Assembly (NCBI GenBank): GCA_973895155.1
Contig: OZ316892.1
Coordinates: 18,652,357-18,716,356 of the forward strand
Direction: 5' to 3'
Source: Marsupella aquatica
Lineage: Eukaryota; Plantae; Marchantiophyta
DNA: 64,000 bases
Shown: positions 7,080 through 30,742 of the stretch, in pieces
How positions within the stretch are numbered: position 1 is the stretch's first letter
Layout: every line of letters starts with the position of its first letter
Made by a program: the position numbers and the translations under genes
The notes under the pieces: model-generated
What the model was told of the DNA's origin: nothing
What the model saw: only the letters and a program-made list of their open reading frames with translations
Database searches by the model: none

Positions 7080-7754
7080 GAGACATTAGTTCACAAAAGA
7101 GACACAAAAGTCTATGATTTGCCTAATTTGTTTTTTCCTTTGAAACCAAAGGACTTACGCAATAGTTATATGTGGGGTGAGTGGTTAGTCACAACTTTGA
7201 ACCACCCCCTTTGGTGAAAATGTGGCCAAATATTCAGGTATGACCCCACATTACCATTATGAAAAGTACACTTTTTTAGGGTTGGGGTAGTGAAGAGCTG
7301 ATCATATATATTTAAGTTGGACATTTAAGTTGGACTTATATTGAACATGAAGCATGCATTGGTTGTCATATATGAAGGGGGCCGGGGAAACATGAAGGTT
7401 TAAAATGGTATGACCAAACTAGAATTAAATCTATGTGGAATGACATATGGTGTATCCAAAATCATATGTATTGGGTTAGATCCCATACTTTAAGGTTGAA
7501 GGGCTCAAATGTTGTGCTCTCATAAGTTGTACTCTAATGTAGAGTCGCTTGTATGACTTCAACCTAATTGCCTTAACTGAGTTATAGTTACAACTTCCCT
7601 AAAAGTTGTAAACATGACTCCTCAAAACTTCACCAAAACTCAGTCAAGAAGGTGTGACTAACATGACACCAACAACCTTGGAGTCGCTATTTCATGAAGG
7701 TCTCGGACAAGTCACGTTCTTTGTGGTCTCAGAAAGGGTGGGTTTCTTCTAGTG
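7080..7754. mobile_element. Terminus of a CACTA element of the same family as the element starting at 9441 (inner boundary uncertain)
   Basis: ...GGGTTTCTTCTAGTG at 7754. Its reverse complement CACTAGAAGAAACCCACCCTTTCTGAGACC... resembles the 9441 end over ~100 bp. Confidence 0.85.
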
Positions 7755-8258: not shown

Positions 8259-11200
8259 CATCGATAATCATAGCAAATCTCCCAACTTCCAAAAGCTCAG
8301 AAAGTAAACCAATAAGTTACACAATAGATTATAAGAAAGTTTACATATTGAATGCAACAAGGGGCACAAGAGGGAACACCTGAAGATGGAGCTAAAAATC
8401 AGGGCCTTGGCTCAAATCTGCATTAGGCGCAAGCTCCTGCCTCAGAAAAACCTGAGCAAGCATGCATTTGTCCAACCTAAAATATAGTCTCAATATCTTT
8501 TGGAGTCGTTGGTCAGTTTGTTATAATTCTTAGAAATGAACTAGAACGCAGTTAGAGTTTCTTGTCAATGAGTATTAGTTGATCAGTGGAGCCCTTTGGA
8601 GTCTTTGTACACGTACCTTAGCCTGGTAGCACAATGAACCTCAAGATTATGCCTTACATGACCATACATGTAGACAACCTGTGCAAGGTGAGTAAATCTT
8701 TGTACCAATTAACAGACCAGCTACTCCAAATCTTCCCACCATGTCCAAGTCGATCACTTGGCAGTGGAGCCTTGCCTGCAAGGTAGGCAGCAGTTAATTA
8801 CAGCGTGGTTGATAAGCCTTAATGAATTAACGACACGGCTTGATCTATTGTTAGTTACCATCTATTGTTAGTTACCTAGCTTCTAGAACTCCTACTGTAC
8901 ACAGTCATACCTGCTGTAACGGACTTTAAAGGCACGAATTCTGAGCTATAAGACAGTGTGTTGTGAAGTGAATAGTAGCTCGGCAGAAATCCTGTAGCCT
9001 CCACTATTTGAACCGGAGGGTCCGTTCTTAGTAAACAAGTAACTTTACTAGTGTTTGAGACGCCCCCAATTACTTTGTAGGTTAATTTGGCTCTTTAACA
9101 ACATAGGGCCACAGTCAATTGGCAGTAGTAGACTTTGCTTTCTATATTATAGCTCAATACCCATAACTTTACTTTCTATATTACTACTGTAGCTCAATAC
9201 CCATACATTGCACAAAAGATGTCAGTACTAAAAAAGAAATGGTGTTGCCGAAAATGTCATTATGTGAAAGATGTTGCTATGTCAAAGATGCCGGCAAGTA
9301 AAAAGAAATGGCGTAACACCAAAGATGTTAAAATGTGAAAGATGTAGTCAAGTAAAAAGACATGCGGCACCAATGAATTGAAGATTTCATTATTGTAAAA
9401 AGTTTGTGAAGACTTAAAAAGATGTCATGACGCCAAAGATCACTAGAAGAAAACCACCCATTCTGAGACCCTCCCCTATGTGACTTGTGTGAGACCTTCA
9501 TAAATATGCGACTCCAAGTCCGTGGGTGTCATGTTAGTTACATCATACCAACTAAATTCTTGTGAAGTTGTGGGAAGTCATGCTTACAACCTTATCCAAT
9601 GTTACAAATGTAACACTGGTAAGTAAGAAATAGGTAAGTTATATCAGTTACTCAATAATAGTGGAATATGAATTGGACATCATTTTATAAATTTCTGTGA
9701 GCACACATACCTCATTGTCTTTCTACATTATGTAGAGGTGGGGAAGAGGGGTGGCAAGGGACAGATCACTCCTAGCAGTCACATATCAGGGGCTAAGTTT
9801 TTGGGGAGTAAAAAATCTAAAACATAAGTAAAACAAGTGTGAGGACTTTTTACCCCTAGTTTCTTAGAGTAGTTTGGGAATGTTCTCAAATTAATTTTAT
9901 TTTATATATGCGTGCAAGAATGTCATGATTGAAACATTATAAGTACAAATGTGATATCATATATTTTTGGGACACTGCCAGAATTACATTTTATTCATAG
10001 AGGATGAAATATTTCATATAATTTGGGAATGGTATCAAAATTGGATTAGAACACCCCTAATTTTCTTCAACAAAAATATACATATCTTTTGTGAACCCAA
10101 AAAAAACACTATACTTATTCGAGCCTGATGAGTCTAACATGAGGACCCCAAAGTAATGGGCCGAAACAGAAATGATGCATGTGACCAGATTAAAGTGTGT
10201 TTGAGAAGTTATTGTTGAGTATTGTTAGCCATGCATGGTTAACTCTAGTCTTGGGTGAATTTCTAGTTACTTAGGCTAAACCACCATTAGAGTAGCCTAA
10301 ACCACCATTAGGGTGTTAACTGTGATTAGTTGCAACTCTAGTATAGAGCTAGCATATAGAGGGGCTAACAAGCCAGGGTTGCCTTTTTTAGTAAATAGTA
10401 TTCAAGAACACCAATAATCAAGCTTTGTAAAAGTCCCACATAAACTAAGTAGGATAAATTTGATTTCCTCCTTGCATGGGTATGTGAGAGTTTTGCCTAG
10501 AGATATAGATATCATGCTAGCTAGCTATCATCCTCTTCCCATACATTTGCTAGTGCCATGCATCATTCATGATTTCATTTTTATGGACCATTCCCCGATA
10601 CACTTATATCCATTCCTACATGTGAATCTAAAAACACAACACAAGTCGCAGATGTACAGGACAAGATAGAATATACAAGTTGAAATGTATGAACAAAGTG
10701 CTCAGATCTGCTTCTCCCGGTTAGCCTGGTCATAATGAAGCACTGCCAGGGCAGGGCAAAATAACATGGAATAATTAAGGCAGGGACAGATAACATCTGG
10801 AACAATCATCCATGGGCAGTAGACAGCGGCACGGTACTACAGCATCTATATTTACGTACTCGTGCGTATGTAACTCTCTAACGGCAACAGATTGTCAAGC
10901 TAACTCTTTGCCCAGTTTTAGATCCTGGGTCCGAGCAATGCAACGATATGGGGGGAGCTACTCTGAACGCTAACAGCCCACTATACTGATCACCCACTGG
11001 AAAATTCGCTATGCAGCGCTATCTTGTTCCGTTACATCACTTGGCTCTTGGCCAAATTTCGAACCTGCTGCCAAATATCGCTCAAAGAAAAATTGGACAT
11101 ATGCCAAACACAGGGAAAAACTGTCGTCTACCCATGAAGGAGATCAGATATCCCCCCAGTTAAACAGGACATTCAACTCCATGCATGTGGGGGTGGGTTC

Positions 11201-12200: not shown

Positions 12201-13651
12201 TTAATTTCGAGAGGACCATCTTATTGGAATGCCTCCTCGTGAATACAGAATAACGTCTAATCCATCTTCCAAGCCTTCAATGTCAGCAATAGCCACCCGG
12301 GCTGTGACTTGTTCCACCGCTCTCCATTCCATAGTTGACCTTGTGGACCTGTAGCTTGAGCCTCGAGAAGAATGTGTTTTGTTAACCCAACTGATGTGAA
12401 CATTGAGATCACTCAATTCTGGACAAGCCCTTGAAGGGACACCTGTTGCAAGAACCCTAGACTCTAAATTGCAAGTCATATCCTCCATGATTTCCACTCC
12501 GTTGCTACCTACACAGGTATGTGCCTCTCCATCCTCATCATCCAGGTCTACCAATGGCCCATCTTCTTCTGTAGATGAAATGTCCACCTGCCGAACAACA
12601 GTAAGCTTTAAACCTGAAGTGGATCGAACCTTCACGACGTCCTCTGTATGTGGATAGGTTGGGCAGATATGAAGAAAATTATCTTCTATATGATGATGAT
12701 CCATTCGATCAGAAAGTTCCAAGCACACTATCTCAGCTAAATTCCTTGCATTGGCACAGATACGTGGGACTGGCAAAAACTTGTGGAGCAATCGAGATAC
12801 TGGCCGGCAATTGTTGTCCTGGTAAGACTCAGGAGTTGCCAACAACACCAGCATCCCATAATGATTATCTGTCAATATCTTTGGTGGATTATCGTTGGTT
12901 CTCTGTATGCCAAACCAATTTCCTTCAAAAAATATATCCTGATAGCCCATGAACTCATGGAGGAAGAATTTATTAATTACTGCCCTCAAATTCCAACAAT
13001 AGCCTGCATCGTTCTCTTCATCAGTCAAGACTACTACATGGTCCCCTGTTCTGAAAAGTGTTCCCCTCACTACAACAGATTTTATTGGGGTTACTTTTCT
13101 TTCCATTGTCACTTTGTTGTAATCTGTCAACACACTGTGCTTAGCCCAATGCATCTCCAAAACATTTACTGTATCAACGGACATGCCCACTTTCTTCACT
13201 CGCTTAGAGACCATGCCAATGCCAATTCCTCTTTGCAAGATTGAAACTCTGCAGTATGAATTTTCAGGTGAGAAGCTCAGATTCTTCCAAATGTAAAGAG
13301 CCTTCACTTGCGAGGACACTACAACAATACATCTCTCATGCCACTGTGGACATGACAAGTCACGTTTATCTCTCACTGCATGCTCATCTTGGTGGGTTCC
13401 TGTAGGTCTCAGGTGAATGTGTGCTGTGACCAATGCACGTTGATGAGGAAGAAAGCCATCATCATCTTCCCAAGTTCGAATTGAGGTTTTGGTGAAAAAT
13501 AGCCTAGCATGATGACTGGTGTACGTCTGCTCCTTCTCTTTGTTGTTTGTGGTTGTCCTTCCATAGCCTGAGACCATTCGTTCAAACCTATAGCACCAAT
13601 AACCCCAATGCAGGCCATGACGTTCAATATCATCCAGAAGCTCCCCACTGC
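12201..13651 (-). pseudogene. CACTA-like transposase, last exon (catalytic Glu region plus C-terminal BAH/DUF4216-like region)
   Basis: IERHGLHWGYWCYRFERM motif; AG acceptor at 13652-13653. Confidence 0.8.
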
Positions 13652-13856
13652 CTACAAAGAACACAGAATGCTGCCAGTCAAGTATATATTTGAGCATGCC
13701 TTTATCAACCTGGACTGTGAGAAAAGACTTCAACTCACCACAATACTAATCTAATTAACCAAAATATTAAACTAAAAACAATAAATTGTGGGTACAGATT
13801 TTTGAACTAACAAATCTATATCAACAAACTTCCCAAAATTCAATCTGATAAGTACT

Positions 13857-14383
13857 TAGCATGAACCTGTTAGCGGATGTCGAAGTAGGTAACGATTACC
13901 ACAGTAGACCACTGTGCCTCCTGCTCCACGAGTAGATCTATTGGGATGCTTTCTCCAAGTCCCTTTCATGCAGCACCTCCTACAAGCATAATAGCCCTTA
14001 ACACACCATCCACCAAATTTACATTGGGCTGGATGATCCCCTGTGAATATGCACAATTGACATCTACATCTAAATGTACTAGTTCGGATCATGGGATGTA
14101 TTATCTCAGGTTGGTAGGAAAAAGTGCAAATGAACCCATCAACAAATAGCTTTTGGAGATCTCTAATTAGTGGCTCCAAGAAAGCATCTAAATTATTGAA
14201 CTTGCGTTTGGTCAATTTCTCTGTCTGACTGTGCGGTATAAACAATACAGGAATTGGCTGCATGTCAGATCTGATGCCCATATTTAGTATACTAATTTCC
14301 ACAGTCCAGGTGCTTCGGTAACTAGACCTAGCAGACTGAAATCCGTCCCAATGAGCCATCAATGCCAGATTTCGAGGATCCCC
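13857..14383 (-). pseudogene. CACTA-like transposase core exon (Tnp2/Transposase_21-like)
   Basis: GDPRNLALMAHWDGFQ, LDAFLEPLIRDLQKL, GDHPAQCK, GYYACRRC. Confidence 0.85.
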
Positions 14384-14543
14384 CTGGTCACATGCAACAG
14401 AAGAATATATCCAAGAAAATAAGAACAAGCATTGCAAAACCAGTGGTAAAAAACATGAATGTGTATATGGAAACCAACCGTGAAGCAAAAAATTAGCCAA
14501 CAAACATATATATGAGATCTTGATTATTTAACATGATTCCTAC

Positions 14544-14710: not shown

Positions 14711-15418
14711 GGGGAATTTACAAACGATAGCAAACAGATAACAGTAACAGGAAACAGATTCTGGTACCAGTTAAAAGGAGCTGTTACCAGTGAACAGTGT
14801 TTGGATGGTCGTGAACAGTGATCTTAAAAAAAGGTCTCAAAATCTCCATTTGAAAGTACAAGAATAGAAAACAAAACCACCAAACCCTCGTGATAAATAA
14901 AAGAACAACACGGAAACAATTTTTTGAAACATAAAAGACGGCTGCCAATTGAGATACACAAAATCCAAGACAAATACAAGTAGAAAAGAAAGGCCGGAAA
15001 AAACATTCGCATATATTATCGCAAAATAGAAAACGCGCTCGGCTTAAGTGATACAAAATGCAGTTATCAACATCAACAATCTGGCCTAAAATCCCATCCA
15101 TGAAGTCACGGTCGACACCGTCGGAGGTTTTCGACTAATACATGAACAGCGCTCGGCGCTAGCCAAAAACTAACTAGAAAACTAGTCATTTCTTGGAGAC
15201 AAGATGCGTCCAAACCCAGACAACATAGTCAAGATCCATTCCCTCCCACAAAATCCATTGTCATTTCAATAGCGCCCGACGCTAGCCAAAACCTAAATAG
15301 TAGACAACCAGGAAAACCCTAACGCCAGAGCTGAGGTCGACTTCAATGCCACAAAATCCAGAAAACTTTAGCAGCGCCCGGCGCTAGCTTAAAGCGATCA
15401 GCAAAACAAAATTTCCAT

Positions 15419-15880
15419 CTAGCTTTCCGAGTTGCAATCATCATCCACTCCTGCTGCTTCTCTCCGCCGATCTTTCTTGAAGCCGAGACCACGCAAACGA
15501 ACGTATCCCTCTCACGGTCCTCGATGAACAGCCTTTGTAAAATGTTCATTAGGAATATTACTGTCCTTAAAATCAACTCGCCCGAACATTTCTTGTACTC
15601 TTCGATCGATTGGGAGTACCCCATCAACAAGAACTCCCGGGTGAGACGAAAACTGACTAGAGAACGGAGGCGCAGGGGAATCGACAATCCAAGGGATGTT
15701 CTTCTCTCCAGGACTAATAGCCTCATCATACGGGAGAGCATGACGGTTCCGAAAAGTGGAAGTTTCAGTTTCTTCAGTCTCCATCCACGATTCAAAAGAG
15801 CTGAAATGGCTCTCTTCCGGACGCACACGAGAAGGACAAAAAGCTGCCTCCCAATCCATTGGCTCATACTGACTCGCCAT
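15419..15880 (-). pseudogene. Small MULE accessory ORF of unknown function (one internal TGA)
   Basis: MASQYEPMDWEAAF...VHRGP*EGYVRLRGLGFKK...NSES*; the TGA is explicable as CGA>TGA. Confidence 0.45.
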
Positions 15881-16014
15881 GTTTCAAAGATCCCGATCTA
15901 ATATGTAACCTCTCCTCCCGTAAGAACGTTGTCCGCGAGTGCTATAGCCGACAAAGGTCAAAGAAAGGTCCACGAAGACTAAGATGCCAGATAAAGGTCC
16001 GCGTACACTACCGT

Positions 16015-16380
16015 TCCGAAACGACCATCAAACTATCATCGTCCCATTCTATTGCCTCCCGAAACTATCTTCGCCTTGGTAACAGGTATCGTCCCATTCT
16101 ATCGCCCTGCTCTAACGTCCCGTTCTATCGTCTTCCCGAAACAAAGTCTTCCCAAATGAACTATCATCCCGTTCTATCGTCATCCCGAAACAAAGTCTCC
16201 CCTCCCATTCTATTGTCCCGTTCTATCATCCCGTTCTATCATCCTCCCGAAACTATCATCGTCCTCAACTATCGACGTCCCCAACTCTCGTTGTCCTGAA
16301 CAAACCTAAACTGAAACTATAGTCGTCCCTTCCACCCGGTCCCTAAACTATGGAATCATCGTCCCGAAACTATGGTCCCC
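16015..16380. repeat. Degenerate short-motif array (CTATCRTC / CCCGAAAC / CCCRTTCTAT)
   Basis: More than 10 interleaved copies visible upstream of the small ORF. Confidence 0.7.
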
Positions 16381-16694
16381 AACGGTTTTTCGACGACTGA
16401 CTAAAGAACACAATCCAAATGGCAGGTGGTATCCAATAACGATGACCGTTGACAAGAAACAACAAAGACTAAACGGCCATTTAGAGATTCCATTTGGCGA
16501 GCGCCAGGCGCTTGTAAAGAACAGAAGTCAAAAGTAATCAACAAGTAGAGAGAAATCAACAATTTAAAAGGACCCTCAACAGAGGGAAATAATACAGATG
16601 TTACAAGCACCGGGCGCTGCTAAAAGATTTAGCCTCAAATACCCACTACTTCTCACGGTTCCGAAGATTCTAAGTCGGAACCAAAATCTGTACT

Positions 16695-19600
16695 CTAGGA
16701 TCTGTCCGTGGACACAGCCTCATCATCTACGTACTGGCTGCGGGAGAAGTCATCAACATAAGGATGTTTAATGAACTTTCGGTCAACACCCCTTCGTAAC
16801 CGAAGACCTTTGTTTTCCCAGCAAAGTGTCCTTGCACTTTCTGCTTTCCTTGCGGCTTTCTCTGCATAGGAGGGAAGAACAAACGGTTTTTCCGGTGTTT
16901 CTACGTTGTTTCTCGCGATCTTCCTCCGTAGTTTGAATCGTCTCCTTGCATTCCACTCTGACCTGATATAACAAAGTCCATTTTGTAAGGCGCCTTTCCC
17001 CAAAACAACAAAAGAAATGTTTTGAATTGACGGGAATGGAGAAAGAAGCTTACGAGTTTATGAACATGACTCGGAAGAGTCATCACTATCGGTTTCATCT
17101 GCAGCTGCACGACGCTCTCCCTTTTCCTCCTTGGAGTTTCTTGTACCTTGTTCCTCTCCACCTTCACTCGATTCATCATCAGAATCAAAATTGAGAACCG
17201 ACCGAAGCTTATCTCTCTTTTTTTGTTGGCAGTAGGAATAGGTGGAGGTAATACTGCAATCTCTTTGGGAGACAACAAATCCATGAAAACCTTTGAAGCG
17301 GTTTCAATAAATTCTTTCCGGTGTTCTATCCCAAGTACAAATCATCCAGAGAAGTCGCCAGCAATGTAAGAGCCTCCAGCCCCAGCAGTCCAATCCATAA
17401 AAATATCACGAGGCCGTGTGACAAGCTCTATAACAGATTGCATAAAACCCACAGACAGACGAGCATTTCCAGCAAACTCCATTTGCGGGAATGGATCTGA
17501 TTTGAGCGAAGAGAGTCCGATCAAATTGGTAACCGAAGGGTCCTCATTGATGGACAGCGGCCAAAATTTGGGGTCTTTGGGAATTTTACATTTCCCATTA
17601 ATTCGGCCAAATATGTCGAGCCTGAGGGTAAACATCTCTCGGTCTGTCTTTGCCGCATACATTGGGTAAGACATCACAACATTATGCGAGCATATACACT
17701 GAAATTTCCTTGACTCCTGACATGTAGCAATGACTTGCGACATGGGATCGTACTCCCCATTGTGTAGAATTACAAGGAACCCATCATCTGATAAAAATGG
17801 ATCCATGGATTTGAAAAAAGATCTAGCCATTGAGTGATCTGGAATGTTCCATTTAGGAACCTTCTTATCAATGATAGATGGTTTGAACCCGGTCGGTAGG
17901 TAAATGAAGCCGGCATCCACTCCAAACGATCTTACTTTTCCCCCCTGAACAACTCCCTTCTCTTTAAATCCCAACTTAACGAGGTCTTTTCCCCATTTTT
18001 CCACATCACTAACCCACTTGGGCTTCTCCTCCTTGTTGAACGTCGAGTCAAAAAATTCAGAAAGGCTTGTCTCAACCATGCAATGGCGAGACACAGTTGT
18101 TTTGAAGTTTCCAACTTCACGTTGGAAACCAGAAGCTATAACACTCTCCCTTAAAGATTGTCCACCTTTGATAGCTCTCTTTCGTTTCTTCCTGGTACTC
18201 GTGGCGTCGATAGGAACTATAACCTTCCCTTTGTCGACTGGAGTAATGGGGTCCGATCGAGCTCCCGTGTTTGCCTCAGAAACTTCAGGTGTAGCATCCT
18301 TTTTCGTGTTCCCACCGTATTAGACTTCCTCCCTCCTAAAATATAACCAGGTCGTAGTTAGAATAAGTACTTTTAAAGTATTGAAAGAAGCTAGCGCCAG
18401 GCGCTAACCAAATGCAATTCACTTAAGTCGCAACCGAAGCCTAATAACCAAGAAAGAGAATACCCTCAATAGAATATTTTTTGCCAGCGCCTGGGGCTGG
18501 CAAAATCATGGATAGCAATACTTACTCTTCTTTCCAGATTTAGTAGACTCGCTCGGTGCTGCTAGCTCCCCCAGCCTTTGTAAACTAAAGAGGTATACGT
18601 GCGTACACCCCCCTCCTTAGTACCCCTTATTATTTTTGGAAGCCTATAAAAATTTCTCTTGTTATTCTTAAAAACTTAATTTTGGAGAATAAATCTGCCC
18701 CTTTGAGATATTATAATTTCACATTTTACACCATTTATGAAAGCCTTGAAAAGTTATAAATTCATCATTTGCACACGGTTCTAAAACTGACGGGAGTGTT
18801 TTGGAAGGGTTTTGGGTACATACATTTTTGTGTTCGTGACCCTTTAACCCCAAACTTCAACTTTGGGGCATTTTTGAACCACACGGTAGGGTAGTCAGGG
18901 TTCAAAAGCTCCAAAGTCCTAAACTACTCTGAATCATAGATATTGCAAGCATAATTATATGTCATATACACATGTTCCAATAAAGGGTGGCCACAAGGAC
19001 CAATCCTATTGTGACGCGTGTCACATCCATATTACATCACCTCTTGAAGCATATTAACTTGGGCAACATTTATATAAGCCTATATTAGTTAGAAAGGGTT
19101 CTTTGAATAAAACCATCCCTTGATATTTCTAAGCCAATTATAAAAATTAATCTCAAATCAGATTTTTTGCACCCTTCATCCGTTCGCACGTCCAACCCAT
19201 TATTAATAATGCTGGGGGCCCAGGGGCTAGCTCCGCTTTGGCTTTCGCGCGAAGTTTGCGACTCCGATCCACATGCACAACAGTTGTTTCACAGATAGTT
19301 TGCAAGTTTGTGGCAGACTTGTCTACATCGTCAAGTAGACCCTGCTTCATGTCGGACACAAGTTTTGCTGGCATCTGAGACTTTGAAAGCTTATGGAAGG
19401 CATCTTTTTCCCTTTCATCAAAAGGAGAATCCCATCTATCTGTATCTAGATACCAGGGGCAGTGAGTTCTCTCCCATTCTGTCATTGGTCTCGGAGGAAA
19501 TATGCCCTCCGTGGGGTACATAGAGTACAAATCAGCCAAGGCATCATCTTCACTTATTGAAATCCACTTCATAAAAGCTGCAGGATATGCCCAGAAGTAA

Positions 19601-21400
19601 TCAGGTTTGGTTGCCTCCATGTGCATGTAGAACCTATACACAAACCTCTTCGCTCGCTTCTGGTTTCTCTGGGTGTAATCTTCTTTGTCAGGGTACTTTG
19701 AAGGCCACATAGTGTGAAAGAACTTATTCTTCACGGAATCACCAAATCTCTTGAATTCATTTGTAACAAACTGAACTAGATCATCAAACGAACTACAATT
19801 CCACTCTTCCAATCTATTCGCGGGCATGGTTTGCTCAACTTCACGTAGACATGAATGTAACATGCCAGCAGCAATTCCCTCCACACTATTCCAAGTGATC
19901 CAAGTGTGGCACCACTGTTTGACTGGATCATCGTTAACACTTGCTGGGTGAAAAAACTGTCTCCGCAGCTCAAGATTGCAATGTGCCACAAGTAAAGTGC
20001 TTTGTAACTTTGGGTCTAGAGCAGAAACAGTGGTGAACAATCGTGCGCGGTCCATCGTACATACAACGGTGTCAGGCTTCTTCTCTCTCTTGTTTCTCTC
20101 TGTGACAGCATACATTTCTGCACATGTACTGAGGAAATCTTCAAATTCAGGACTTAATAAGGGTGTAATTTTTGAAGACTTCACTGCCCAATATTTGGTT
20201 GCGTCTTTCATCATGGCCGCATGCCGTTTTGAAATCTCGTCCGCCGACCATGGACTCCCTTGAGCCTCCGCTGCCTCCATGTCGAGTTTGAATTGATGCG
20301 AGTACGACTTTATCTTATTCTCACAAAGAATGTAAACAAGTGCTTCTTGTGGCATCTTCTTCGTATACCATGACCCCTTCCGAGTTTTCAGCCGAATGCT
20401 TTCAAACTTCTTGAAATTACCCGGGTCAATCAGTTTACTGTAATACTCAAGGTCATGCGCCAGAATTCGTTTGATTCTGTCCGCATCCAGGATCCAGGAA
20501 GGCTCTACAACTGCTTGGCCAAGCCTACACGAACAAACATTGAGAGTAAGAGTCAATGAAAAACAATTCATGTATAAGCAGCGCTGAGCGCTAGTAAATA
20601 CAGCACTCGCAAGATTTAAGGAAAGAACTGGAAATCATGAGAACTTACTGATTCACGGTGTGCATAGCTGCCTCAATTTCAATGAGAGATCCCTTGTCTC
20701 CTTTAAATATTGTACAGAGCACACGAGGATGATATTTTGGATTGTCCGGGTTCTCCTCTGTTACAAGCGTCCAGGAGTACAGCCTGTGATTTCCATCGAA
20801 TACAGAGAACATCTTATCCTTCAAGACGAGAAAATACGGGTCAGCCTCGCATTTAGCCTCAAACTTCTCATTCTCCAATTGCCATATTGGATCCCATGAA
20901 TCATGAATGTCCTGGGTACAGGTCAGAATAATTCCGTTCTCATCCGTTGGCTGCACATAGAAACGCATCCCTATCGAAGAGTTGTAACCCATACTACGAA
21001 AAGAGTCTTTCAGCTTCTCGATGGAAGAGCTGTCTTTCTATAGAGTACGAACCACCTCCATGTGAACCAATCGACACAGAGGGATTCGAGGCGGCTCCTT
21101 GTCAAATCCACGAGAATCCTTTCCAAAAGACATGACATGTTTCGAAATGAGATCAGTCTCAGCAAGCGCGCAATCCGCAACATCCTGGATCGCAATTGTG
21201 TCTACATTGTCCATCTTTCTTCGCAAAGGATTTGGACCCAAAACACCGCTGACAGAAGTGAGCGGCAACAACTTTGAGGAACGAGTTACACGATGTGTAT
21301 AGACTGAACCAGTAAATGAAGACTACGAAGATTCAGAATAAGCTCGCTCCTGGTCAGGAACCGCACTATACCCTCTAGAAGAAGAGGGGAATACCTCCAT
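16695..21400 (-). pseudogene. Multi-exon gene: ParB/Srx-like domain + helical middle region + beta-class N6A/N4C DNA methyltransferase-like domain
   Basis: Exon 1 21400-20649 (VRTL*...IEKLKDSF..MGY...VFDGNHRL). Intron 20648-20525 splices in frame. Exon 2 20524-18526 is interrupted by a MITE. Intron to 18336, then exon with VDAGFIYLPTG...FLSDDGFLVI...VIELVTRPRDIFMDWTAGAGGS...SG*FVLGIE. The exon 2/3 join needs one further lesion near 18300-18335. Confidence 0.75.
18569..19225. mobile_element. MITE copy 1 (TIR CCCTGGGCCCCCAGC, 8-bp TSD; left TIR missing its outer 8 bp)
   Basis: TSD GCTAGCTC at 18561-18568 and 19226-19233; near-identical inverted copy at 54148-54801. Confidence 0.92.
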
Positions 21401-22364
21401 CGTCTTCCTTCTAGAAGCGTACGAACTATCGTACAATGAAATTATGGAACTATAATCATCTCTGAACGTGTAATATATTCTAGTGGGAGGATGACATAAC
21501 CTAGAGGAAAGCCATTAGCTCTGATGTTTGGCGGTTTCCAACGTCTGTATACGAAAGGTTTAATTACCAAAATCAAACGGTAGAAGATGCGTAACACACA
21601 CGGAAGTCATAAGTTACCGTTGAATGTTACCGTTAAAGACATTTCCTAACATCATATCAATACTAGCGCCGGGCGCTAGCATTAATGATGACCATCAAGG
21701 TGAACAATTTAGAGTATGCTTATAATAGCGCCCGACGCTAGTATAAACTGGAAGAAATTTAGAGGTCTTTTTTGAAGGAGCTATGACATAAATTTTGGCC
21801 TTTCCACCCCCATATTTTATTAAAGTATCCTTCAATATATCGTTTACGGAGAAATATTTCTCAAATGTAATACTAGCGCCCGACGCTAGTATAAATGTTC
21901 ATTTATCATCCATAATCAATCAAAACCATCCTTTGAAGGCACCATTTATTCCCAATTACCACCTGGTATGTGGTCATAATGTTCATTTTCAGGGAATTTA
22001 TTCTATACTAGCGTCGGGCGCTAGTTTGGAATGTCAAGATTTCAGACACATTTTTAGTGGCGTATTTTAGTTAGCGCCAGGCGCTACTAAAATTTGACAA
22101 TACCTTGTCATATCTTATGGTCTGTTTAAGTAAGGTTGGTGATCTTTTTAGCAATATGTTCGTGTCTGACATCCGGACTTCTCGGGGAAAAAATGACAAA
22201 AATCATTTATGGTGCCAACGGATCCTCCATCGTCTATGTTTTATGTCGTATACAAACGGATCGGTTAACGTCAAATTCCCAGGTTCAATAGATATAAGCT
22301 GAACAATACCATGAACTTTTCTTCTTTCAAACGCTATAGCCCTCGGTTTTTGTTTTTGTTCACC

Positions 22365-25300
22365 ATGTCTCGGTCTATCGTTCTTTCTCGATTCGGTTAT
22401 GAAGATATTGTGACTATCCCCGTCCCCATGGAAGATACGTACAAGCAGGTCCGGGAGAGGTATCTTTGCGGGAGATTTGATTTGAAGATGAATGACATTG
22501 AGGCTATTGTTCGAGAGCTCGAATCCATTGATGATATCAAGGATGCTGCAACATTCAATGTCAATGACGGTGAACGGTTTTGGCATCTCTACGCAGGGAT
22601 CTCATACTCGGTTCGTTTAAAACAGCATGCAAGACTGTCCAGTTTCCCGCCGGTTCCATGTGATGTGGTTGAGATTTCTTCAAGTGAGGATGGAGATCGT
22701 ACTCTAAGTCCATCGTCAAAGAAGAAAAGCCTGCTCCCTGCTGCGTGAAAGCTGAGACTCCGGGAAGCTCTAAGCAGTTGGAGGTCGTGTACCGGCGCAG
22801 TGCGATGGATACGTTACTCAAATCAACTGGTCATAGTGAGTTGTCACGGTTCATATCAGCGGGTGATTTCAGGCATGAACAAGTGTCCTGTCTGCCAACT
22901 AAGTACAATGGTAACGTCGTGTTTGAGTTGCCGCCCATTGATAAGATGCTCTCTAAAGGCTCTAGGCTTAGGGACATGGATCGTGCCAAAGATTGTTACA
23001 TTTGGACATGCATATTTCCAATAACTGCAACTGTTCATCCTAAAAACCTTTGGCAGTTTAGGAAGGTTACCTGTACGGGATTCATTGAATGCAGGAACAA
23101 GTCCTGCGACTATTTCCAAAGGAAGAAGAAGGCAAATGGTAAGGCATGGCAGGGTACTCCAAAGCTCAGTGGTCAGTATGCTGTGGGATCTTTCATCGAA
23201 GAGGGAGGTGTTGTTTGTCATTACTGCGAACAGATTCCTTTTTGTGTGAAGTACTGCCCTGCCCGTTTGTTTTACATGTACCCCCAAGTATTACTTGATG
23301 CGGAAACATGTAGTCATATGTCTCGCCTAGCAATTCATATAGGTGAGCACAACCATCCAGGTAGAAAAACCTTCTGTAGGAGTGCGGAGAAGATAGCTGA
23401 GGATCTAATTAAAAAAAACATGAAGCCAATCCTCTGTCAAAACCGGCAGGGATCTTGAATTCTGCTACAGGGTCCTTAGTGAAATCTCTCTGCGAACATG
23501 TTGACGACATGGTCGATATCGAAGAAACTGAATATGGAAGTCTCTGATGGTCCTTTCCACTCCGTAGAAGTTTGCATCTCTTTGTCGGAGCGTTAGGATA
23601 GACCAAAAAGGTCGGGGTGAATTAGATTTTCTCTCGCAAATGCAGAGGAGAATTCATGTGTCGTTTCTCCAGAGGTATTTGCTTCCAGGTCAGGGATGTC
23701 AGAACGATAGGCCTCACATCTTTAAAATGACCGTGAAAGGTCACGGTTCCGGTGTGGATCTTTTGAGGCAGATGCAACCGGGTGGCAGACTCAAAGGAGC
23801 CTGGGTAAGTTTCGATGTGATGCAGCGTGTCACCACGGATTGGTTTACTTTCAGCGCACACGTCTACGACCACAATTTCCGTGCACTATGTACAATTTTC
23901 ACATGCGAGTTGAAAGGTGAAGACACTGAGTCCTTCGAAAAGGCATGGAGAGTGATGATTGAGGTTTGCAAAGAAAATGAACTTCAGGAGGTTGTCATCC
24001 AAGGATTTATGGCCGACAATGCACAAGCTGGATGGAATGCAGTGCGAAATGTTTTTTTTGGTGGACACCCGGACCCGGAGAGGGAGCGCTCTGATGCATT
24101 TCACTTTTATCAATCTTTTCATCGTCATTCCAAGGAAGGAGTACTGGAAGAATGTCAATCGGAGCATCGGAGACTTTGGGAGAAATTGAGAAATGCTCCA
24201 TCATTTGTGGCAGCATACCGGGTGTCCCGAGAGATTGTTGTGTGGTGGCAATCAGGAAATTGTGTCCCCGGAAAGCTGAAGATGCTGCAAAGTTGGATAT
24301 CTTGGTGGGTTGTTCGCTGGCGCCAGTGGGGCAATTTTATTCGAGTGGTAAGGCATCCATCTATCTAGACTGTAATGTTCATCAACTTCATATTAGCGCC
24401 AGGCGCTGGTTATTTTCTCCATACACGTCAAAACAAGTAGTACAAGAAATTGAAGCCAATATGTAGTTAGAATTCAGTATTAAACATTGAAATTGTATTT
24501 CAGGCCTGTTCTACATATTTATGTTGCCAGCGCCGGGCGCTGGTAATAGAATACTACTTACGGTTGACATTTTCGTATGGCAGAGCAAAAGCTCTGAGGA
24601 AGGTGCCTTGATCCCCAACTGTACAGGGTCAGAATCAAGGCATGCGTCCATGAAAGCCTCGGCTACAAAGAAAAAGGTCGGTCTTTATGAAGCTTGCGAA
24701 GTTGACCAAAACCGTGCTGTCTCAAGTTGCCGGATACAGTGCATACCGTAAAGGCTTGAACCGGGGGAAGGGGCCAACTATATGGGAATTGGCGTTCCGT
24801 TCCGCCGATCAAGCAGGTTCGCCAAGATTGTTTGAAGAAGCGACTAATATGCTTCTATCTAACGCAGCAGAATTTGATTTGGAAAGAAGTACTCCCCTGA
24901 ATGGAGATATAATGACGAAGTCAATGAAGAGGAAGGGACATGCAACTGGGACTGTCTCTCCACAAGATTCCCATCGGCATGACACCATTCTAATAACCAC
25001 ACCAAATACTCGTGGTTTGAAAAGGAAGAACCTGAACAGAACTGACTTTTCTTCTATTCCCTCAAGTTCTGATCATCCTGTCACAAAGGCGGTGAATCTC
25101 TCAGGTATGGTCACATCAGAGAGTGATACTGATTCACTGGACTATACTCCTCAAACAACCCAAACAACAAGATCCTCAAAACCTCCGCTCAGTGCCCCAG
25201 CAGCACTTCAGAATCAACTTCCACGCACGATTGTGCTAGAGAAGGATGTCCCTCCGGGGCAGTGGCAGTTGCGACGGACATCGAAGTATGGAGCAGGTCC

Positions 25301-26111
25301 GCAATGCAATGGTACACTGAATGGGAGTTCGGATCGCGATGAGTGTCAAAATCGTATCAAGAAGGTTGGCTTCCATTCGTCTGAAGGTGTTGTCGGAATT
25401 GTCGTGAAGGGCCATCGTCTCTTCAGGGGCGAACCCATCTCCGAAATGATTTGGTTTTGCCCGAACCAAGCGTGTTACAAGAGTCATCCGCGTCGTGGTG
25501 TTCAGAAGCTTCCTCCTTTTCCTGACATTTTGCCTGTTCTGAAGGGTACGAGCCTATCTCCTTCTGAAATTACATTCCTGGAAGAGCAAGGACTTGTCTT
25601 AGCGCGAACAACAGGATTGAGTCAATCTGCGCCATCTGCTTTTGACCTCAGGATAAATGTTAATGTGTTCCCAGAAACAATAAGGTTTTTGGAGCCGAAT
25701 CTCCGACTTGGTAGTCGAAATGGGAGGAACTCAAGGCCTCGGTCTAATCTCACTGTGGGTCACACAAAGCGAATGGAGTCTGCACGACAAGAAGTGATGA
25801 GTTTGGATGGGGAATGGAATGTTCAGACCGGAAATGCTTTTGGAAAGCAATTTCGAATTCGAACCCATGAGAACCATCGATCACCAAGCACATACTTCGT
25901 CCAAATCTGTATCTTCCCCGCTTGCTCTTGTGAAGACTTCTTCCTCCGACATTCGCGTGGCAAGTCGTACATGCCTTGCAAACATCTATACTGGGTGTAC
26001 ATAAATGTTTTCAAACTTGAGATTGAGGAGTCGACTCTTTGTAGCCAACCTATTTTGACTTTAGGCGAAGTCAGGCTTGTGCTGGAGAGGCAGAACTTGA
26101 ATGGCTTATGA
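22365..26111 (+). pseudogene. MULE-type transposase: WRKY/GCM1-like Zn finger, DDE core, C-terminal SWIM finger
   Basis: CTGFIECRNKSC...CHYC...CPAR...HIGEHNHP; SFDVM...GFMADNAQAGWNAV...AFHFYQS; intron ~24348-24583; SESRHA; CSCEDF...PCKH. Several frameshifts and stops. Confidence 0.85.
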
Positions 26112-26823
26112 GAGAGATCGAAACTGCCCAATAGGTCGTCGTTCAATATAACGGTTATTCCCTATTTTGTCTTTTTCCAACAGATATTTTAGTTGTTTTA
26201 TTGAGACTTTGTTGGTTAGCGCCGGGCGCTGGTTCTAGGAAACTGGATATTCATTGCTTCATTATGTACGTGCATTGTGGAAGAATGACCTCTTGTTTTA
26301 TTTAAAATGTGTAAGTTGATTAAATTGTCTACTGTCTTCAAAGCCTCGAGGATGTGATTTGTCATTTGTTTGTGACGTTACAAGGTCCATTTAATCAACT
26401 CCTTTAGATTGGGTTGATTTGGACTCCACGATTGAATGTGCTATGGTGGGTCCCACTCTAAGGGTCACTATTTGGTGATGAAAATAGATTGATTTGCATG
26501 AATGTTTCTTTAGGCACACCCCTAATACCATGTTTTTTATCTTCTACAATAAATTGTTGTGTCAATGGAGGATTGATAGTACACTTCATCCATCGGATGG
26601 CACAAAATAATTGTTTGTTTTAAACTTTATTACCCCCCGAAAAATTATGTCATTAGAGTGGTGGATATGCACCTTAGAGTGGTGGATATGCACGTTATGG
26701 TTCAGGCAAAACTGGTAACAGGGACAAGCTTACTGGTAACAGGTACAATTTCCCTGTTAACAGAAAATAAACCCCTGGTAACAGGTTTTCTGTTTTCTGT
26801 TTTCTGTCATGGCTATCATACCC

Positions 26824-27355: not shown

Positions 27356-28307
27356 GAGTCATCTTGCATGTGCAAGTCCTATAAAAAACCGGCCCTTACC
27401 TGCCCACGAACATAGGGAAAAAGTAGGTGACCAAATCAAACCAGAATCTTCCAAATCAATACGTGCAATGCTCCCACTCGGTAGCATGTCCTTCTCTGTC
27501 ATTTCCACTCTGTCGTTTCCACCCTTGAGAATATAGGCCGGTATGCGGGAGCTCCTGCAGCAAACGATGTCCCTGTAAAATGTCACAGGTCCCTCTATAA
27601 CCCGGATTACATGCGACAATGCTCGCTTCTCATTTCTACTTCTTCAAACTCCCGTATTACCATGCACAGTGCTCACTTCTCTTGTTCCCGGCCTGCAGCG
27701 AACTTCTGCAACCTCCGAACTCCAGCTCATTTAACACACATAGTGCCCAAGGACTCCAACAGAGTGACGGCTTGCCACTACGTTTGTTGTCTCCGCCAAT
27801 GCTGGGACTGTGCTTACGATTTCATCCACATTGCTCGCTCTTGGCACGACATTGCAATTGTGATCTTCATTTATTAGAATTCTTGGTACATATGATGAAC
27901 TCATTCACTGCTTTTCAATGTGCGAAGAAACCGAAGCCCCAATGTGTAAAGAATATCGAACCCACAATGTGCCTGATAGATTAATTTTTACTTTCATTCT
28001 TTGTGGAGGCCTTTTCCGGTCAAACTATTCAGCTGGTGCCCGAGATTGCGCAATGGTGCTTTCAAACGAGGAATTGGAAATAATATTGTCCACAATTCTT
28101 GTTTTGCAGCAATTGTTCTTGTTGCAACTACAATTGTACACTCTTCTTGCCAATAATTTGATACCACAAAGATGTGACAATGGTTCACATTTTGCTAACT
28201 TGCTTTGACTCTTTCAGATTATTCAGCATGCGTTTTGCAGAGATTATCATCATATTTCGGGGAATTACATTGAGCCAAGGTCAAGAGAGTGGAGTGGCTG
28301 GTATCTC

Positions 28308-29393
28308 ATGCATGTCATTGAGCAGGATCCTGTTCGCTTCAAGTATTTGTTTCGGGTGTCACCGGCAACGTTCATGTACATTTGTGACCTGGTTAGAGAA
28401 GACATGACAACAAATCCCCCGCCTGGCCTCCGCAATTTGACAAACAGGACATTGTCTGTTGAGCGCCAGGTTGCCATAGCCCTTCGTCGGTTTTCCAGTG
28501 GTTGCTTGTTGTTGACACTTTCAGAGATGTTTGGAGTTTCTGTCCCATGCATATCGGAAGTCATTTGGCAATTTGTGAAGGCTATAATTGTGCGAGCAAG
28601 GGGGAGACATTTGAGTTGGCCACAAGGAGAGGCCATGGCAATGGTGAAAGAAGAATTCCGCCAACTGCAAGGATTCCCAAATTGTTGTGGTGCAATTGAT
28701 GGGACTCATTTTCAAGTGGAGTTACCTCCTGGAATGAATTCCATTGATTATCGTGACTATAAGCATGGTCAGAGCATTTCCATGCAAGGTATTTGTGATA
28801 GTCGCCTTTGTTTTTTGGATGTCTTTGCAGGATGGCCTGGCAGCATTCAAGACTCACGACTTCTAAAAGTATCTGGATTTTGCAACGATGTTTTGGTACA
28901 CCATACAAAACTCTCAGGTCCAACATTTACATCACCAACAGGATTTCGTACAGGGGAGTATGTTATTGGCGATGCTGGCTACCCTGCTTATCCGTGGTTG
29001 ATAAATCCTTTTCCTTCTGCAATGGAGCATAGCCGGGAGAAGGAATTTAACTACATGTTGAGCTCAACCAGGATGTGCGTGGAGCATGCTTTTGGTCAGT
29101 TAAAGAATAGTTGGAGATTTATTTCACACAAAATATATCGGCCAGCTCCTTATCGACTACCGCATTACATTACTTGTGCGTGCATTCTTCACAACATCCG
29201 TATTGACCGTGGAGATGCTTATGACCCAGCTTGGGGGATAGACCCAGACCCCCCTTATGAACCCGGAGGTCCCCCTGCTGCACATCAAACTTACAATAAT
29301 GGACGTAGATATCGTATTGCAATGATGAACCATTTGCTCCCTCAGAGAGAGTGGGAACAGGAACAACAAAGACGTCGTGCTGCCCCTTACTAG
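28308..29393 (+). CDS. Harbinger transposase (HARBI1-like DDE_Tnp_4 nuclease); true start probably near 28053 via a short intron
   Basis: FRVSPATF, GAIDGTH, GWPGSIQDS, IGDAGYP, RMCVEHAFGQLKNSWR, CACILHN; uninterrupted 361 aa. Confidence 0.93.
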   Translation: MHVIEQDPVRFKYLFRVSPATFMYICDLVREDMTTNPPPGLRNLTNRTLSVERQVAIALRRFSSGCLLLTLSEMFGVSVPCISEVIWQFVKAIIVRARGRHLSWPQGEAMAMVKEEFRQLQGFPNCCGAIDGTHFQVELPPGMNSIDYRDYKHGQSISMQGICDSRLCFLDVFAGWPGSIQDSRLLKVSGFCNDVLVHHTKLSGPTFTSPTGFRTGEYVIGDAGYPAYPWLINPFPSAMEHSREKEFNYMLSSTRMCVEHAFGQLKNSWRFISHKIYRPAPYRLPHYITCACILHNIRIDRGDAYDPAWGIDPDPPYEPGGPPAAHQTYNNGRRYRIAMMNHLLPQREWEQEQQRRRAAPY

Positions 29394-29579: not shown

Positions 29580-30742
29580 CTATTGTGTAGGTTGTGAAGA
29601 ACTAGCAAGCTTCTCCATAAGGACGTCAGTCAAACGTGTCATCTGCTCGGTTGCTGCAGTTAAAACCCTCTCTTGTCGTTCTCGAACTTCACACTCACGT
29701 TCTCGAATTTCACTATCATGCTTGGCCGTAGATGCCATCTTCGCACAACTGTTGGCCATGGTTTTCAAATGGCCTTGTTTGTCACTACTAGACTTGAAGG
29801 CCTTTCGCTTCACACCTCTCTTACTCGGGCCAGAAAACTCCTGAGGAGATGATGGTTCTCTCACTCCACCAATATGCTCAGTGTTCTGTTCCGCACTCTC
29901 TTGTGTTGGTTGTGAGCAGTGATTTTGGCTCATAGGTACAGACCTATGTTCATCAACCTCAACATCATCACCTGCAAATAAAAGAAATAGAAAAGTAAAG
30001 AAAATGAGACAAAAAATATTAGTGGGCATGAAAATGTGTGATACATACAAACAAACTACTTGCACAATAGAAATCAATTAAAAAACAAAAACCCACTTGC
30101 ACTTGATAGTACAATATTGAGATAAGAACTTGTAAGTAACTTCTTACTTTCTGATGACAAGATGAACGGATCTGGCCTTGGGTTCCGGTCCATAGTAGAA
30201 ATGTCAGATAAAAACCTTGTAGGTGGAGTAACACGAGGAATACGTGCATACCACTCTAGCAATTCCTCATACAGGTCAACAGAGAAATTAGTGGGGAATT
30301 GATCATTGTGTCGCTGTTTGTCATCCATGTCAAAGTAAGAAATCTGCCCGGTTTTCTCCTTCTTCTCATAATCATAAATCAATTTGAACTTGCTCTCAAT
30401 GATCTGCCACTTCTTCTTACAAGAGTTTGGATCTCGAATAGGATTAGTAAATCCCTCATCCACCATAAACTTTGCCACAGCTTTCCATTTCAACTTGCTG
30501 CTGGTCATCTTCTTCTGTGTTGAGCCTTCCATAACAACATTGTGATATTCATTCCACTTTGCTGCAATGAGAACCTTCATCTCCTTGTTGGTCCAATCTG
30601 GCAACTTACTCTTTCCTTGAGGCCGTGGTGCATCAGTGGGACAGGCTGTAGCTACATTGTTGAGATCCAAGTCACGCAACGGCTCACATTGTCGTGAGGA
30701 TGCACTATGGCCTGCAACGCCACTCAGGTTCTAGCTCATCAT
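29580..30742 (-). pseudogene. Harbinger Myb/SANT-like (trihelix) DNA-binding protein, 2+ exons
   Basis: WTNKEMKVLI...KWKAVAKFM...RDPNSCKKKWQ; intron ~30145-29973; coiled-coil C-terminus; one early TAG near 30731-30733. Confidence 0.85.

Follow-up and report, generated by a model that had tools for sequence, protein, structure and literature searches.

The window analysed here is a stretch of 64,000 nucleotides from the liverwort Marsupella aquatica (contig OZ316892.1, positions 18,652,357 to 18,716,356 of the forward strand). On its minus strand lies a gene whose product is predicted to combine an N-terminal domain with a ParB/sulfiredoxin (ParB/Srx) fold, a helical middle part and an end that resembles a beta-class amino-methyltransferase. 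A second gene, which may encode a Mutator-like transposase, runs divergently from it, and a short palindrome recurs across both genes and their surroundings (Table 1). The ParB-like gene belongs to a large transposon gene family, not described before, with members in bryophytes and ferns. The copy in the window is a dead pseudogene: an insertion of 665 bp and no fewer than three in-frame stops break it.

The original prediction took two adjacent open reading frames (ORFs) for one frame broken by a TAG at 21038, and the sequence agrees. In fact, the minus-strand frame 21322..20649 is a single open frame apart from one TAG, which occupies exactly 21040-21038. The ORF 21322..21041 ends in ...RIPLCRLVHMEVVRTL before this stop, and the frame resumes with KDSSSIEKLKDSFRSMGY...MFSVFDGNHRLYSW...HTVNQ, down to 20649. 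Read across the stop, exon 1 gives ...PPRIPLCRLVHMEVVRTL, stop, KDSSSIEKLKDSFRSMGY...KMFSVFDGNHRLYSW...AAMHTVNQ, and contains the motif stretch IPLCRL...DGNHRLYSW, with the DGNHR codons at 20797-20783. Homology to P0003, which is the closest relative (64% identity over 256 amino acids, aa), extends upstream past a second in-frame TAG at 21325-21323, and the start codon is likely the ATG at 21400-21398.

The stop at 21040-21038 is private to the window copy. We compared copies on contigs from public sequencing runs whose library kind is not on record, and the figures are contig depths. Among the runs placed on 20940-21140, position 21040 is G and not A in other copies (X1 586.6 of 586.6, X2 2061.5 of 2167.5, X3 7433.3 of 7851.1, X4 490 of 490), and position 21041 is C and not T nearly as often. 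Since the depths at these positions favour G and C, the family majority reads CTG CAG (Leu-Gln) where the window reads CTA TAG. Likewise, 17 of the 25 homologues that cover the stop column carry Q there, as counted by eye on the printed alignment. At 21038-21043, the step from the family-majority CTGCAG to CTATAG amounts to two C-to-T-type changes on opposite strands of a CHG site, which would fit deamination of methylated cytosines.

Exon 1 is followed by a GT-AG intron that the original prediction already joined in frame to a helical exon, and both sequence and frame agree. The donor GT is at 20648-20647 (CA/GTAAGT) and the acceptor AG at 20526-20525; CA+G restores a Q, followed by LGQAVVEPSW, and coding resumes in frame with LGQAVVEPSWILDADR. 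In Riccia proteins, the parts flanking intron 1 stand within one protein, and one X2 contig matches 20402-20529 and 20641-20835 with 108 different letters between them. The helical exon itself, predicted as 430 aa, stands as an in-frame conserved helical part. Its last ~25 codons do not: they belong to the 665-bp insertion, which other copies lack. The joint 18560->19226, which omits these 665 bases, is present in all four runs placed on 18300-22300, and the insertion is flanked by a 9-bp duplication, GCTAGCTCC on the plus strand, at 18561-18569 and 19226-19234. This insert belongs to a repeat of its own, with target duplications of 9 bp. Its end at 19077-19225 is 72% complementary over 149 nt to 40342-40490, an inverted match 21 kb away.

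For the splice from the end of exon 2 to the methyltransferase-like frame there are several candidates. With the candidate acceptors 18336 or 18325, the TAA at 18322-18320 stays in frame; a candidate splice from GT 18525-18524 to AG 18284-18283 would leave the frame open into the methyltransferase-like exon. There, the ORF 18319-17345 runs on through an in-frame TGA (17344-17342), at which the Riccia protein has Arg; the read-through is P0033. Exon 1 and the helical exon of the original prediction hold in the main, while the likely upstream ATG, the insertion that cuts the helical exon, the methyltransferase-like end and the pseudogene state had been missed.

Table 1. Features of the ParB-like gene, its divergent partner and the associated palindromes (window coordinates).
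Feature	Position	Strand	Basis or remark
Exon 1: N-terminal region and predicted ParB/Srx-like domain (IPLCRL...WDxxW...N..FE insert...DGNHR)	20649..21400	-	Sequence, conservation, fold model
Intron 1, 124 nt, GT-AG, in frame, predicted from sequence	20525..20648	-	One palindrome copy inside, 20580-20592
Exon 2, main part: conserved helical middle domain	19226..20524	-	ORF; alignment with Riccia, Adiantum and related loci
665-bp insertion interrupting exon 2	18561..19225	.	Contig joint 18560->19226; 9-bp duplication
Exon 2, end past the insertion, ...AAPSESTKSGKK, then GTAAGT donor	18526..18560	-	Sequence; frames read by eye
Open frame with beta-class N6/N4 amino-methyltransferase-like domain (core about 18157-17234)	16904..18319	-	Profile, alignment and fold matches
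Putative Mutator-like transposase, three ORF blocks (22688-23458, 23568-24368, 24654-26111)	22688..26111	+	Divergent from the ParB-like gene
Palindrome AGCGCYNRGCGCT, 16 copies (at most 1 mismatch)	15148..26230	.	Starts 15148, 15271, 15373, 16500, 16606, 18393, 18486, 20580
Palindrome AGCGCYNRGCGCT, further starts	15148..26230	.	Starts 21665, 21727, 21875, 22010, 22073, 24395, 24529, 26218

The first homologue search returned 26 homologues. Searches with longer proteins added annotated proteins in the liverwort Riccia sorocarpa, of which at least 11 paralogues are on record, and in the ferns Adiantum capillus-veneris and A. nelumboides. An exhaustive HMMER profile search over 1.84 billion cluster representatives (clusters at 50% identity) gave 885 matches at E<=1e-3, 438 at <=1e-10 and 93 at <=1e-30; the best 150 of the 885 were inspected. 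On metagenome contigs, a scan with the pattern DGNHRLx[AS]W found 79 loci, several of them near-duplicates, and counts over loci are not independent. The family is multi-copy: between 76 and 751 contigs per run fit the 4-kb stretch 18300-22300 of the window. Identity to the window ranges from 22 to 76% in a tree of 47 sequences. That this is a plant transposon gene, as originally proposed, is borne out by the annotated Riccia sorocarpa and Adiantum homologues, by the copy number and by the putative transposase next door in related loci. None of the 29 pattern matches in species-representative prokaryote genomes was confirmed as a close prokaryotic relative. The single weak match on a viral contig (L080) overlies a different, HipA-like ORF and was discarded as spurious. 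Two gene models of Adiantum capillus-veneris, P0030 and P0031, carry at their end a phosphatase domain of the NIF/FCP1 kind (PF03031, E 4e-14 and 2.4e-12), found neither in the window nor in Riccia. Either the models have been fused or the domain was gained in this lineage.

The N-terminal domain is predicted to adopt the ParB/Srx fold. Its AlphaFold2 model, built from a 27-row alignment, has a confidence (pLDDT) of 83.9, above 90 in the core, and a predicted template-modelling score (pTM) of 0.73. Foldseek returned nothing from the PDB at E<=1e-3; its leading rows (probability 0.89-0.99) are Srx, ParB, Noc and KorB, and SbnI and pNOB8 ParB-N come at lower probability. When the Foldseek candidates were aligned with VIA, all 27 rows listed were ParB/Srx kin. 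The best match was Caulobacter ParB (7bm8_A, Z 8.0, root-mean-square deviation (rmsd) 2.6 A, 98 residues), followed by Noc (Z 8.0), Myxococcus ParB (8.0), B. subtilis ParB (7.9), KorB (7.5), PadC (7.0), Arabidopsis Srx (6.0) and SbnI (5.2). Over 48,161 PDB chains, VIA gave only 15 at Z>=2, and 13 of these are ParB/Srx kin, KorB, PadC, SerK, Srx, pNOB8 ParB, Atu1540, SbnI, Spo0J, SspE, Osa, the DndI complex and BrxU among them. Among viral models (BFVD), the best match is an uncharacterised Cafeteria roenbergensis virus protein (E 3.4e-4), and later rows bring phage ParB, ParB-bearing 'DNA methylases' and DNA-sulfur-modification proteins. The original prediction was to stand or fall with this fold, and ParB/Srx proteins and almost nothing else matched. 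The fold argument holds because the hit list is nearly pure ParB/Srx, not because of the Z-scores.

Where does the family belong within this superfamily? No significant ParB match came from Pfam, NCBIfam or PADLOC, whether single sequences or the profile were used, and no Pfam model covers the family. The DGQHR domain model TIGR03187 is matched at the motif by 9 of 27 members (best E 0.0011), all below its 58.85-bit cut-off; P0001, for example, scores 12.1 bits, with residues 163-207 on profile positions 88-131. These matches suggest kinship, not membership. The PADLOC model PD-Lambda-5_A is matched weakly in 4 of 27 members (E 0.014). ParB CTPase clamps carry a GERR motif and the sulfiredoxin/DndB branch a DGxHR motif. 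The GERRxRA-type double-Arg CTP motif was not found in the family, which reads DGNHR(L/V)xxW, with one Arg. This single-Arg DG-x-HR motif points to the sulfiredoxin/DndB side over the GERR-type CTPase clamps, with no firm branch and outside Pfam ParBc. Thus, of the ParBc identification first made, the ParB/Srx fold survives in the model, while the Pfam ParB profile (PF02195) matches no member.

The motif itself is strongly conserved. D176, G177, N178, H179 and R180 are invariant in 27 of 27 and 31 of 31 aligned sequences, and so are G112, W143, W147, F154, F172 and W184. These smaller sets were found through shared words, and we turned to a word-free HMMER set to lessen that bias. Among its 140 new representatives, 78 carry DGNHR, 15 EGNHR and 6 gaps; the remaining 41 deviate, mostly by single-residue changes and frequently at the Arg (C, Q, H, K, W). 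Such variants may be the spread expected of a family rich in decaying copies. Conservation of DGNHR among homologues, on which the original prediction depended, was thus found both as invariance in the 31 sequences and as the consensus of the 140. The insert of ~45 aa is also conserved and family-specific (W..W...N..FE), with W199 in 135, W203 in 137 and F210 in 139 of the 140. In the superfamily, the phosphate-binding motif (GxxR or DGxHR), ended by Arg, sits where a strand passes into the next helix. In the AlphaFold2 model, DGNHR lies between the strand 172-176 and the helix 178-190. With its invariance in the 27 and 31 aligned sequences, the motif exceeds chance.

The helical middle part aligns with Riccia, Adiantum and the metagenome loci L006, L007 and L016; with Riccia P0029 it shares 28% identity across 228 aa (E 2e-25). 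Beyond it, the methyltransferase-like part matches residues 840-1184 of Riccia P0176 (R1sor_027256, 1207 aa) at 25% over 365 aa (E 3e-16). This Riccia protein holds the ParB-like, middle and methyltransferase-like parts in one chain, and so does Adiantum P0030. In six sequences, the profile PF01555 (N6_N4_Mtase) is matched at one end, positions 160-220 of 221: the window (E 0.038, 14.4 bits), L007 (0.0043, 17.4 bits), L016 (0.021, 15.2 bits) and Riccia P0174 (9.4e-6, 26.2 bits), P0177 (2.5e-5, 24.8 bits) and P0176 (5.2e-5, 23.7 bits), against a cut-off of 26.7 bits. The same region finds M1.HpyAVI by sequence in the PDB (5hek, E 0.0069; 5hek/5hfj, E 0.007-0.009). Foldseek, run on a poor model, puts CcrM on top (E 1.4e-3), then M1.HpyAVI, METTL3-14, MTA1c and M.BceJIV, none at E<=1e-3.

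Beta-class methyltransferases have the motif IV side first and, near the C-terminus, a motif I of the D-P-F-x-G-S-G type; their catalytic motif IV is (D/N/S)-P-P-(Y/F/W), for example DPPY. Motif I is kept here: DIFMDWTAGAGG in the window aligns to DIVLDPFMGSGTT of 5hek, and relatives carry GDIVLDCHAMTG (L007), GDIILDWNASTG (L016) and GDIVIDFAGGWG (Riccia). The first residue of motif IV is lost in the window copy. A small profile, iterated on the loci, placed the first half of the domain 1.9-3.7 kb downstream of the ParB-like exon in 20 of the 28 loci whose downstream flank measures 4 kb or more. Every one of its 30 matches among the loci shares the strand of the ParB-like gene. We read the C-terminal part as a putative amino-methyltransferase module resembling the beta class, whose catalytic motif is derived and which may have lost its activity in some lineages; its fold is predicted from a poor model and sub-threshold profile matches.

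Across from the ParB-like gene stands its putative partner. Of the 17 loci that extend 6 kb or more upstream, 11 have a homologue of it there in the opposite orientation; homologues were also found in L060 and L073, and two further matches (L046, L075) are located elsewhere. The two genes stand head-to-head even in loci where protein identity to the window is down to 25-40%. Mutator-like elements (MULEs) are recognised by PF10551, a DDE core, a SWIM finger and long terminal inverted repeats with 8-11 bp duplications. In the Atlas language model, the look-alikes of the middle block of the partner are MULE and ZSWIM RNaseH-like clusters (score 0.92), and a CxC...CxH stretch was seen by eye near its C-terminus.

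The palindrome AGCGCYNRGCGCT has 16 matches where 0.12 are expected, and the rest of the 64 kb holds none. None of the 16 AGCGCCNGGCGCT palindromes overlaps coding sequence, which makes up 58% of their span; not one of 200,000 random placements equals that. Five lie between the divergent genes, the remainder in introns and 3' regions. At 18495, other copies carry a perfect palindrome. In run X5 (organism C), the palindrome-bearing bin 21650-21783 reaches a summed contig depth of 7151, against at most 38 in all other bins, and this segment may have been amplified on its own in that organism. Related loci have short repeats of their own near the gene pair (L019 4952-5255 and 7668-8211; L033 104-233; L078 16078-16785). 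In L033 these include a palindromic TTTGCGAAGCAAA five times, an anecdotal case that may parallel the palindromes of the window.

Other elements share the window. Two CACTA-type transposase remnants, 12201-14527 (-) and 50609-52484 (-), show Transposase_21 (E 9.9e-12), DUF4218 (E 7.9e-36) and a weak DUF4216. We considered a link of the first of them to the ParB-like family and dropped it, as its ORFs match in 0 of 79 related loci. CACTA-like ends CACTAGAAGAAAA at 1778 and 7742 (-) and at 9441 (+) are turned towards each other over a distance of 1.7 kb and come with inverted subterminal repeats of 144 nt (7572-7715 and 9480-9623), an arrangement that resembles one element's right end followed by the left end of a second. 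A PIF/Harbinger pair consists of a DDE_Tnp_4 transposase at 28209-29393 (+) (E 4.8e-31) and a Myb/SANT-like DNA-binding ORF at 30074-30730 (-) (E 1.1e-7). Telomere-like GGGTTTA/TAAACCC repeats in palindromic form, together with nested inverted repeats, lie at 42138-42181 and 42154-43262, and the ORF 56450-57280 (-) encodes NSD-like PHD fingers (PF22908, E 2.8e-9).

How does the ParB-like protein compare with its better-known relatives? ParB, Noc and KorB, the CTPase clamps, are the best matches of its N-domain (Z 7.5-8.0, rmsd 2.6-2.9 A, 92-98 residues). They load at palindromic sites, and the plant element has palindromes spread over it. Unlike them, the plant protein has DGNHR with one Arg in place of GERR and a 45-residue helical insert, and no helix-turn-helix (HTH) or ParA partner was identified. 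With the DGQHR/DndB-like branch (TIGR03187) it shares the DG-x-HR type of motif, the association with a DNA-modifying enzyme and fold matches to viral proteins linked to sulfur modification. It differs from that branch by N instead of Q at the third residue, by fusion of the domain to the enzyme rather than separate encoding, and by scores far below 58.85 bits. Sulfiredoxin is the known ParB/Srx protein of plants, and the Arabidopsis structure 6ky4 matches with Z 6.0 over 88-89 residues at 22-25% identity; an x-G-x-H-R type of motif is common to both. Unlike sulfiredoxin, the transposon protein has no catalytic Cys at the motif and is multi-domain, transposon-borne and multi-copy.

Taken together, we favour, with somewhat more confidence than doubt, the following explanation: the window holds a dead copy of the second gene of a multi-copy bryophyte and fern DNA transposon family, and the ParB/Srx-fold, helical and methyltransferase-like product of this gene would be a nucleoside triphosphate (NTP)-dependent DNA-binding or DNA-marking partner of a putative Mutator-like transposase. 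We lean on bacterial and phage ParB/Srx domains, on the second genes of MULEs and on VANC for the NTP-dependent binding or marking. Bacterial and phage ParB/Srx domains are NTPases and/or DNases, often coupled or fused to DNA-modifying enzymes (PMC5512222; here and below, sources given by PMC number or doi are cited from partial text). MULEs carry extra ORFs, often a second gene, and capture of host fragments is common among them (PMC6446971). In the element VANDAL21, the protein VANC binds to short non-coding motifs and causes loss of methylation (PMC5735166).

By analogy with these systems, a nucleotide would be bound in the DGNHR pocket and might be hydrolysed there; in keeping with the DGxHR branch, it would more likely be of the ATP type. 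The protein's target would be the element, perhaps reached via the palindromes, which are candidate binding sites in this lineage. The original prediction proposed an NTP-gated clamp or nuclease-like module, with DNA recognition perhaps supplied by the helical exon. The C-terminal domain might then bind S-adenosylmethionine (SAM) and methylate DNA; where motif IV has decayed, as in the window copy, it might only bind DNA. The outcome could be a modulation of silencing or of transposition, much as VANC acts for VANDAL elements, or as ParB-like partners act with bacterial DNA-modification enzymes.

Several observations speak against this explanation of the gene. As to the fold, a Z of about 8 is within reach of unrelated models by the calibration of the tool itself; PF02195 (ParB) matches 0 of 27 members, 0 of 25 locus ORFs (E<=1) and 0 of 16 long relatives (E<=0.1); and sequence searches of the PDB, with single sequences and with the profile, found no ParB. 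As to the motif, 41 of the 134 word-free representatives that cover it deviate from [DE]GNHR, the Riccia paralogue P0057 has DGNHQ, and the 79 metagenome loci keep it by construction, as it was part of the scan pattern. The methyltransferase-like end has a poor AlphaFold2 model (pLDDT 51.4), no sequence reaches the PF01555 cut-off, its match is missing in 8 of 28 loci, and its motif IV is not classical (IYLPTG in the window, LDLPTG in Riccia, CHLPTN in the fern, (D/N)-(I/V/Y)-P-x-N in other relatives). The partner gene is missing in 6 of 17 loci and has no Pfam match, PF10551 included; its Mutator-like identity is a lead, taken from language-model similarity and a sequence motif. A search for terminal inverted repeats around 15.1-26.3 kb turned up none, only palindrome-to-palindrome matches. 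Finally, the AGCGCC palindromes were not found in distant loci.

The closest precedent in domain order comes from prokaryotes and phages. In ParB-methyltransferase fusions such as Bce_0392 (PMC5512222), an N-terminal ParB/Srx fold is joined to a C-terminal end like a beta-class amino-methyltransferase, on a mobile element, and a BFVD row likewise reads 'DNA methylase [Mycobacterium phage Vincenzo]'. Unlike these fusions, the plant protein is eukaryotic, has introns, about 1200 aa, a helical middle of ~430 aa and a K/E-rich linker; both its domains are below Pfam thresholds, and its motif IV is not DPPY. The same precedent feeds a first rival explanation, namely that the ParB-like domain is mainly a nuclease or nickase, as reported for the B. 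cereus ParB-methylase and for Osa, helping to cut or process DNA in transposition or attacking rival elements. Several ParB/Srx domains are non-specific DNases and/or NTPases, including the ParB domain of Bce_0392; this B. cereus protein, a ParB fused to an adenine methylase, is characterised as a nicking enzyme (PMC5512222). The same pairing of ParB and methylase is found here, and Osa is among the fold matches (Z 2.4). Set against this are the weakness of the Osa match, the best structural matches, which are to the CTP-binding ParB, Noc and KorB and then to the ATP-using Srx, SerK and SbnI, and the metal-site residues, none of which was identified. We regard a nuclease role as the main activity as unlikely, though less so than the other rivals.

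A second comparison is with the accessory genes of MULEs. Like mudrB, mutB and VANB/VANC, the ParB-like gene is a second gene beside a putative transposase (PMC6446971), and, as for VANC21, candidate target motifs are gathered in the non-coding parts of the element (PMC5735166). Its domain content differs from that of all these genes, and the Mutator label of the partner is only a lead. Capture of host fragments is frequent in MULEs (PMC6446971), and the gene could instead be a host or captured gene in the style of Pack-MULEs, adjoining or carried by the transposon with no role for it. The fern models with a fused NIF/FCP1 phosphatase domain do show chimeric contexts, and the loci that lack the partner fit such an origin. 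In this scenario, however, one would have to account for a head-to-head pairing that recurs at only 25-40% protein identity, for a multi-copy family with many decayed copies and for palindromes that span the non-coding parts of both genes. Moreover, we saw no single-copy conserved host orthologue. We regard a captured gene as very unlikely.

The methyltransferase-like end raises a third possibility, an RNA- or protein-directed methyltransferase factor (for example of the cap-methylase kind) whose ParB-like domain has no role on DNA. Some Riccia members (P0174, P0176, P0177) bear the UniRef name 'Trimethylguanosine synthase', the D-x-x-x-G-x-G-G motif I is generic to Rossmann methyltransferases, and the METTL3-14 RNA methylases are among the fold matches. 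Yet Pfam places the motif I end on N6_N4_Mtase, a DNA methylase family, in six independent sequences, the leading fold rows are the DNA methylases CcrM and M1.HpyAVI, and the order of motifs, IV side first and I last, is the beta-class permutation. We give this possibility very little weight. Least probable of all is a new fold family of unrelated function, in which a common small alpha/beta arrangement carries a DGxHR-like motif by chance: no profile or sequence search is significant for any ParB/Srx family, Z is 'middling' by the tool's calibration and a family-specific insert of 45 residues sits in mid-domain, but the 13 kin among 15 chains come from many branches, DGNHR stands at the strand-to-helix junction where the superfamily binds phosphate, and TIGR03187 touches the motif in 9 of 27 members.

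Two further comparisons can be made. By Atlas language-model features, the nearest clusters to the ParB-like family are DUF3723 (PF12520; score 0.96, 188 and 182 of 256 features), a comparison made by features only, and the PF12520 profile matches none of the members scanned. DUF3723 is a conserved auxiliary gene of fungal Starship elements, of unknown function (PMC9156397; 10.1101/2025.02.28.640899). Both it and the plant gene are accessory genes of large DNA elements. Eukaryotic amino-methylases are also on record: they include clades derived from phage ParB-terminase loci, chlorophyte and chytrid Dam enzymes with a ParB-type HTH, and haptophyte cases (PMC4738411). Those listed there have other architectures, and no transposon protein of land plants with an N-terminal ParB/Srx domain is among them.

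A bolder version can be drawn from the same material, in which plant transposons keep a prokaryote-style pair of ParB and DNA methyltransferase. NTP-gated loading at the palindromes of the element would then write or block marks on its own copies, either N6-methyladenine and N4-methylcytosine (6mA/4mC) or by competition with 5-methylcytosine (5mC) of the host. We hold this version to be speculative and rather unlikely. If true, it would amount to a transposon-encoded self-marking or anti-silencing system, and the same ParB-like module may be what the DUF3723 genes of Starships encode.

To our knowledge, ParB/Srx domains are hardly known in eukaryotes besides sulfiredoxin, and ParB-methylase fusions count as tools that serve phages, plasmids and the conflict systems of bacteria. 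A targeted literature search listed no paper on ParB-like genes in Mutator-like elements or in plant transposons. We regard this eukaryotic, transposon-borne version of the prokaryotic ParB-methylase theme as new. Here, a large transposon family (885 cluster representatives, with liverwort and fern members) has the pairing of ParB and methylase in its conserved second gene. It is also a lead on the function of the Starship DUF3723 genes, and it opens a route to asking whether DNA amino-methylation exists on plant transposons. We envision the pairing as a concrete, testable candidate mechanism by which a DNA transposon in a eukaryote might recognise or mark copies of itself.

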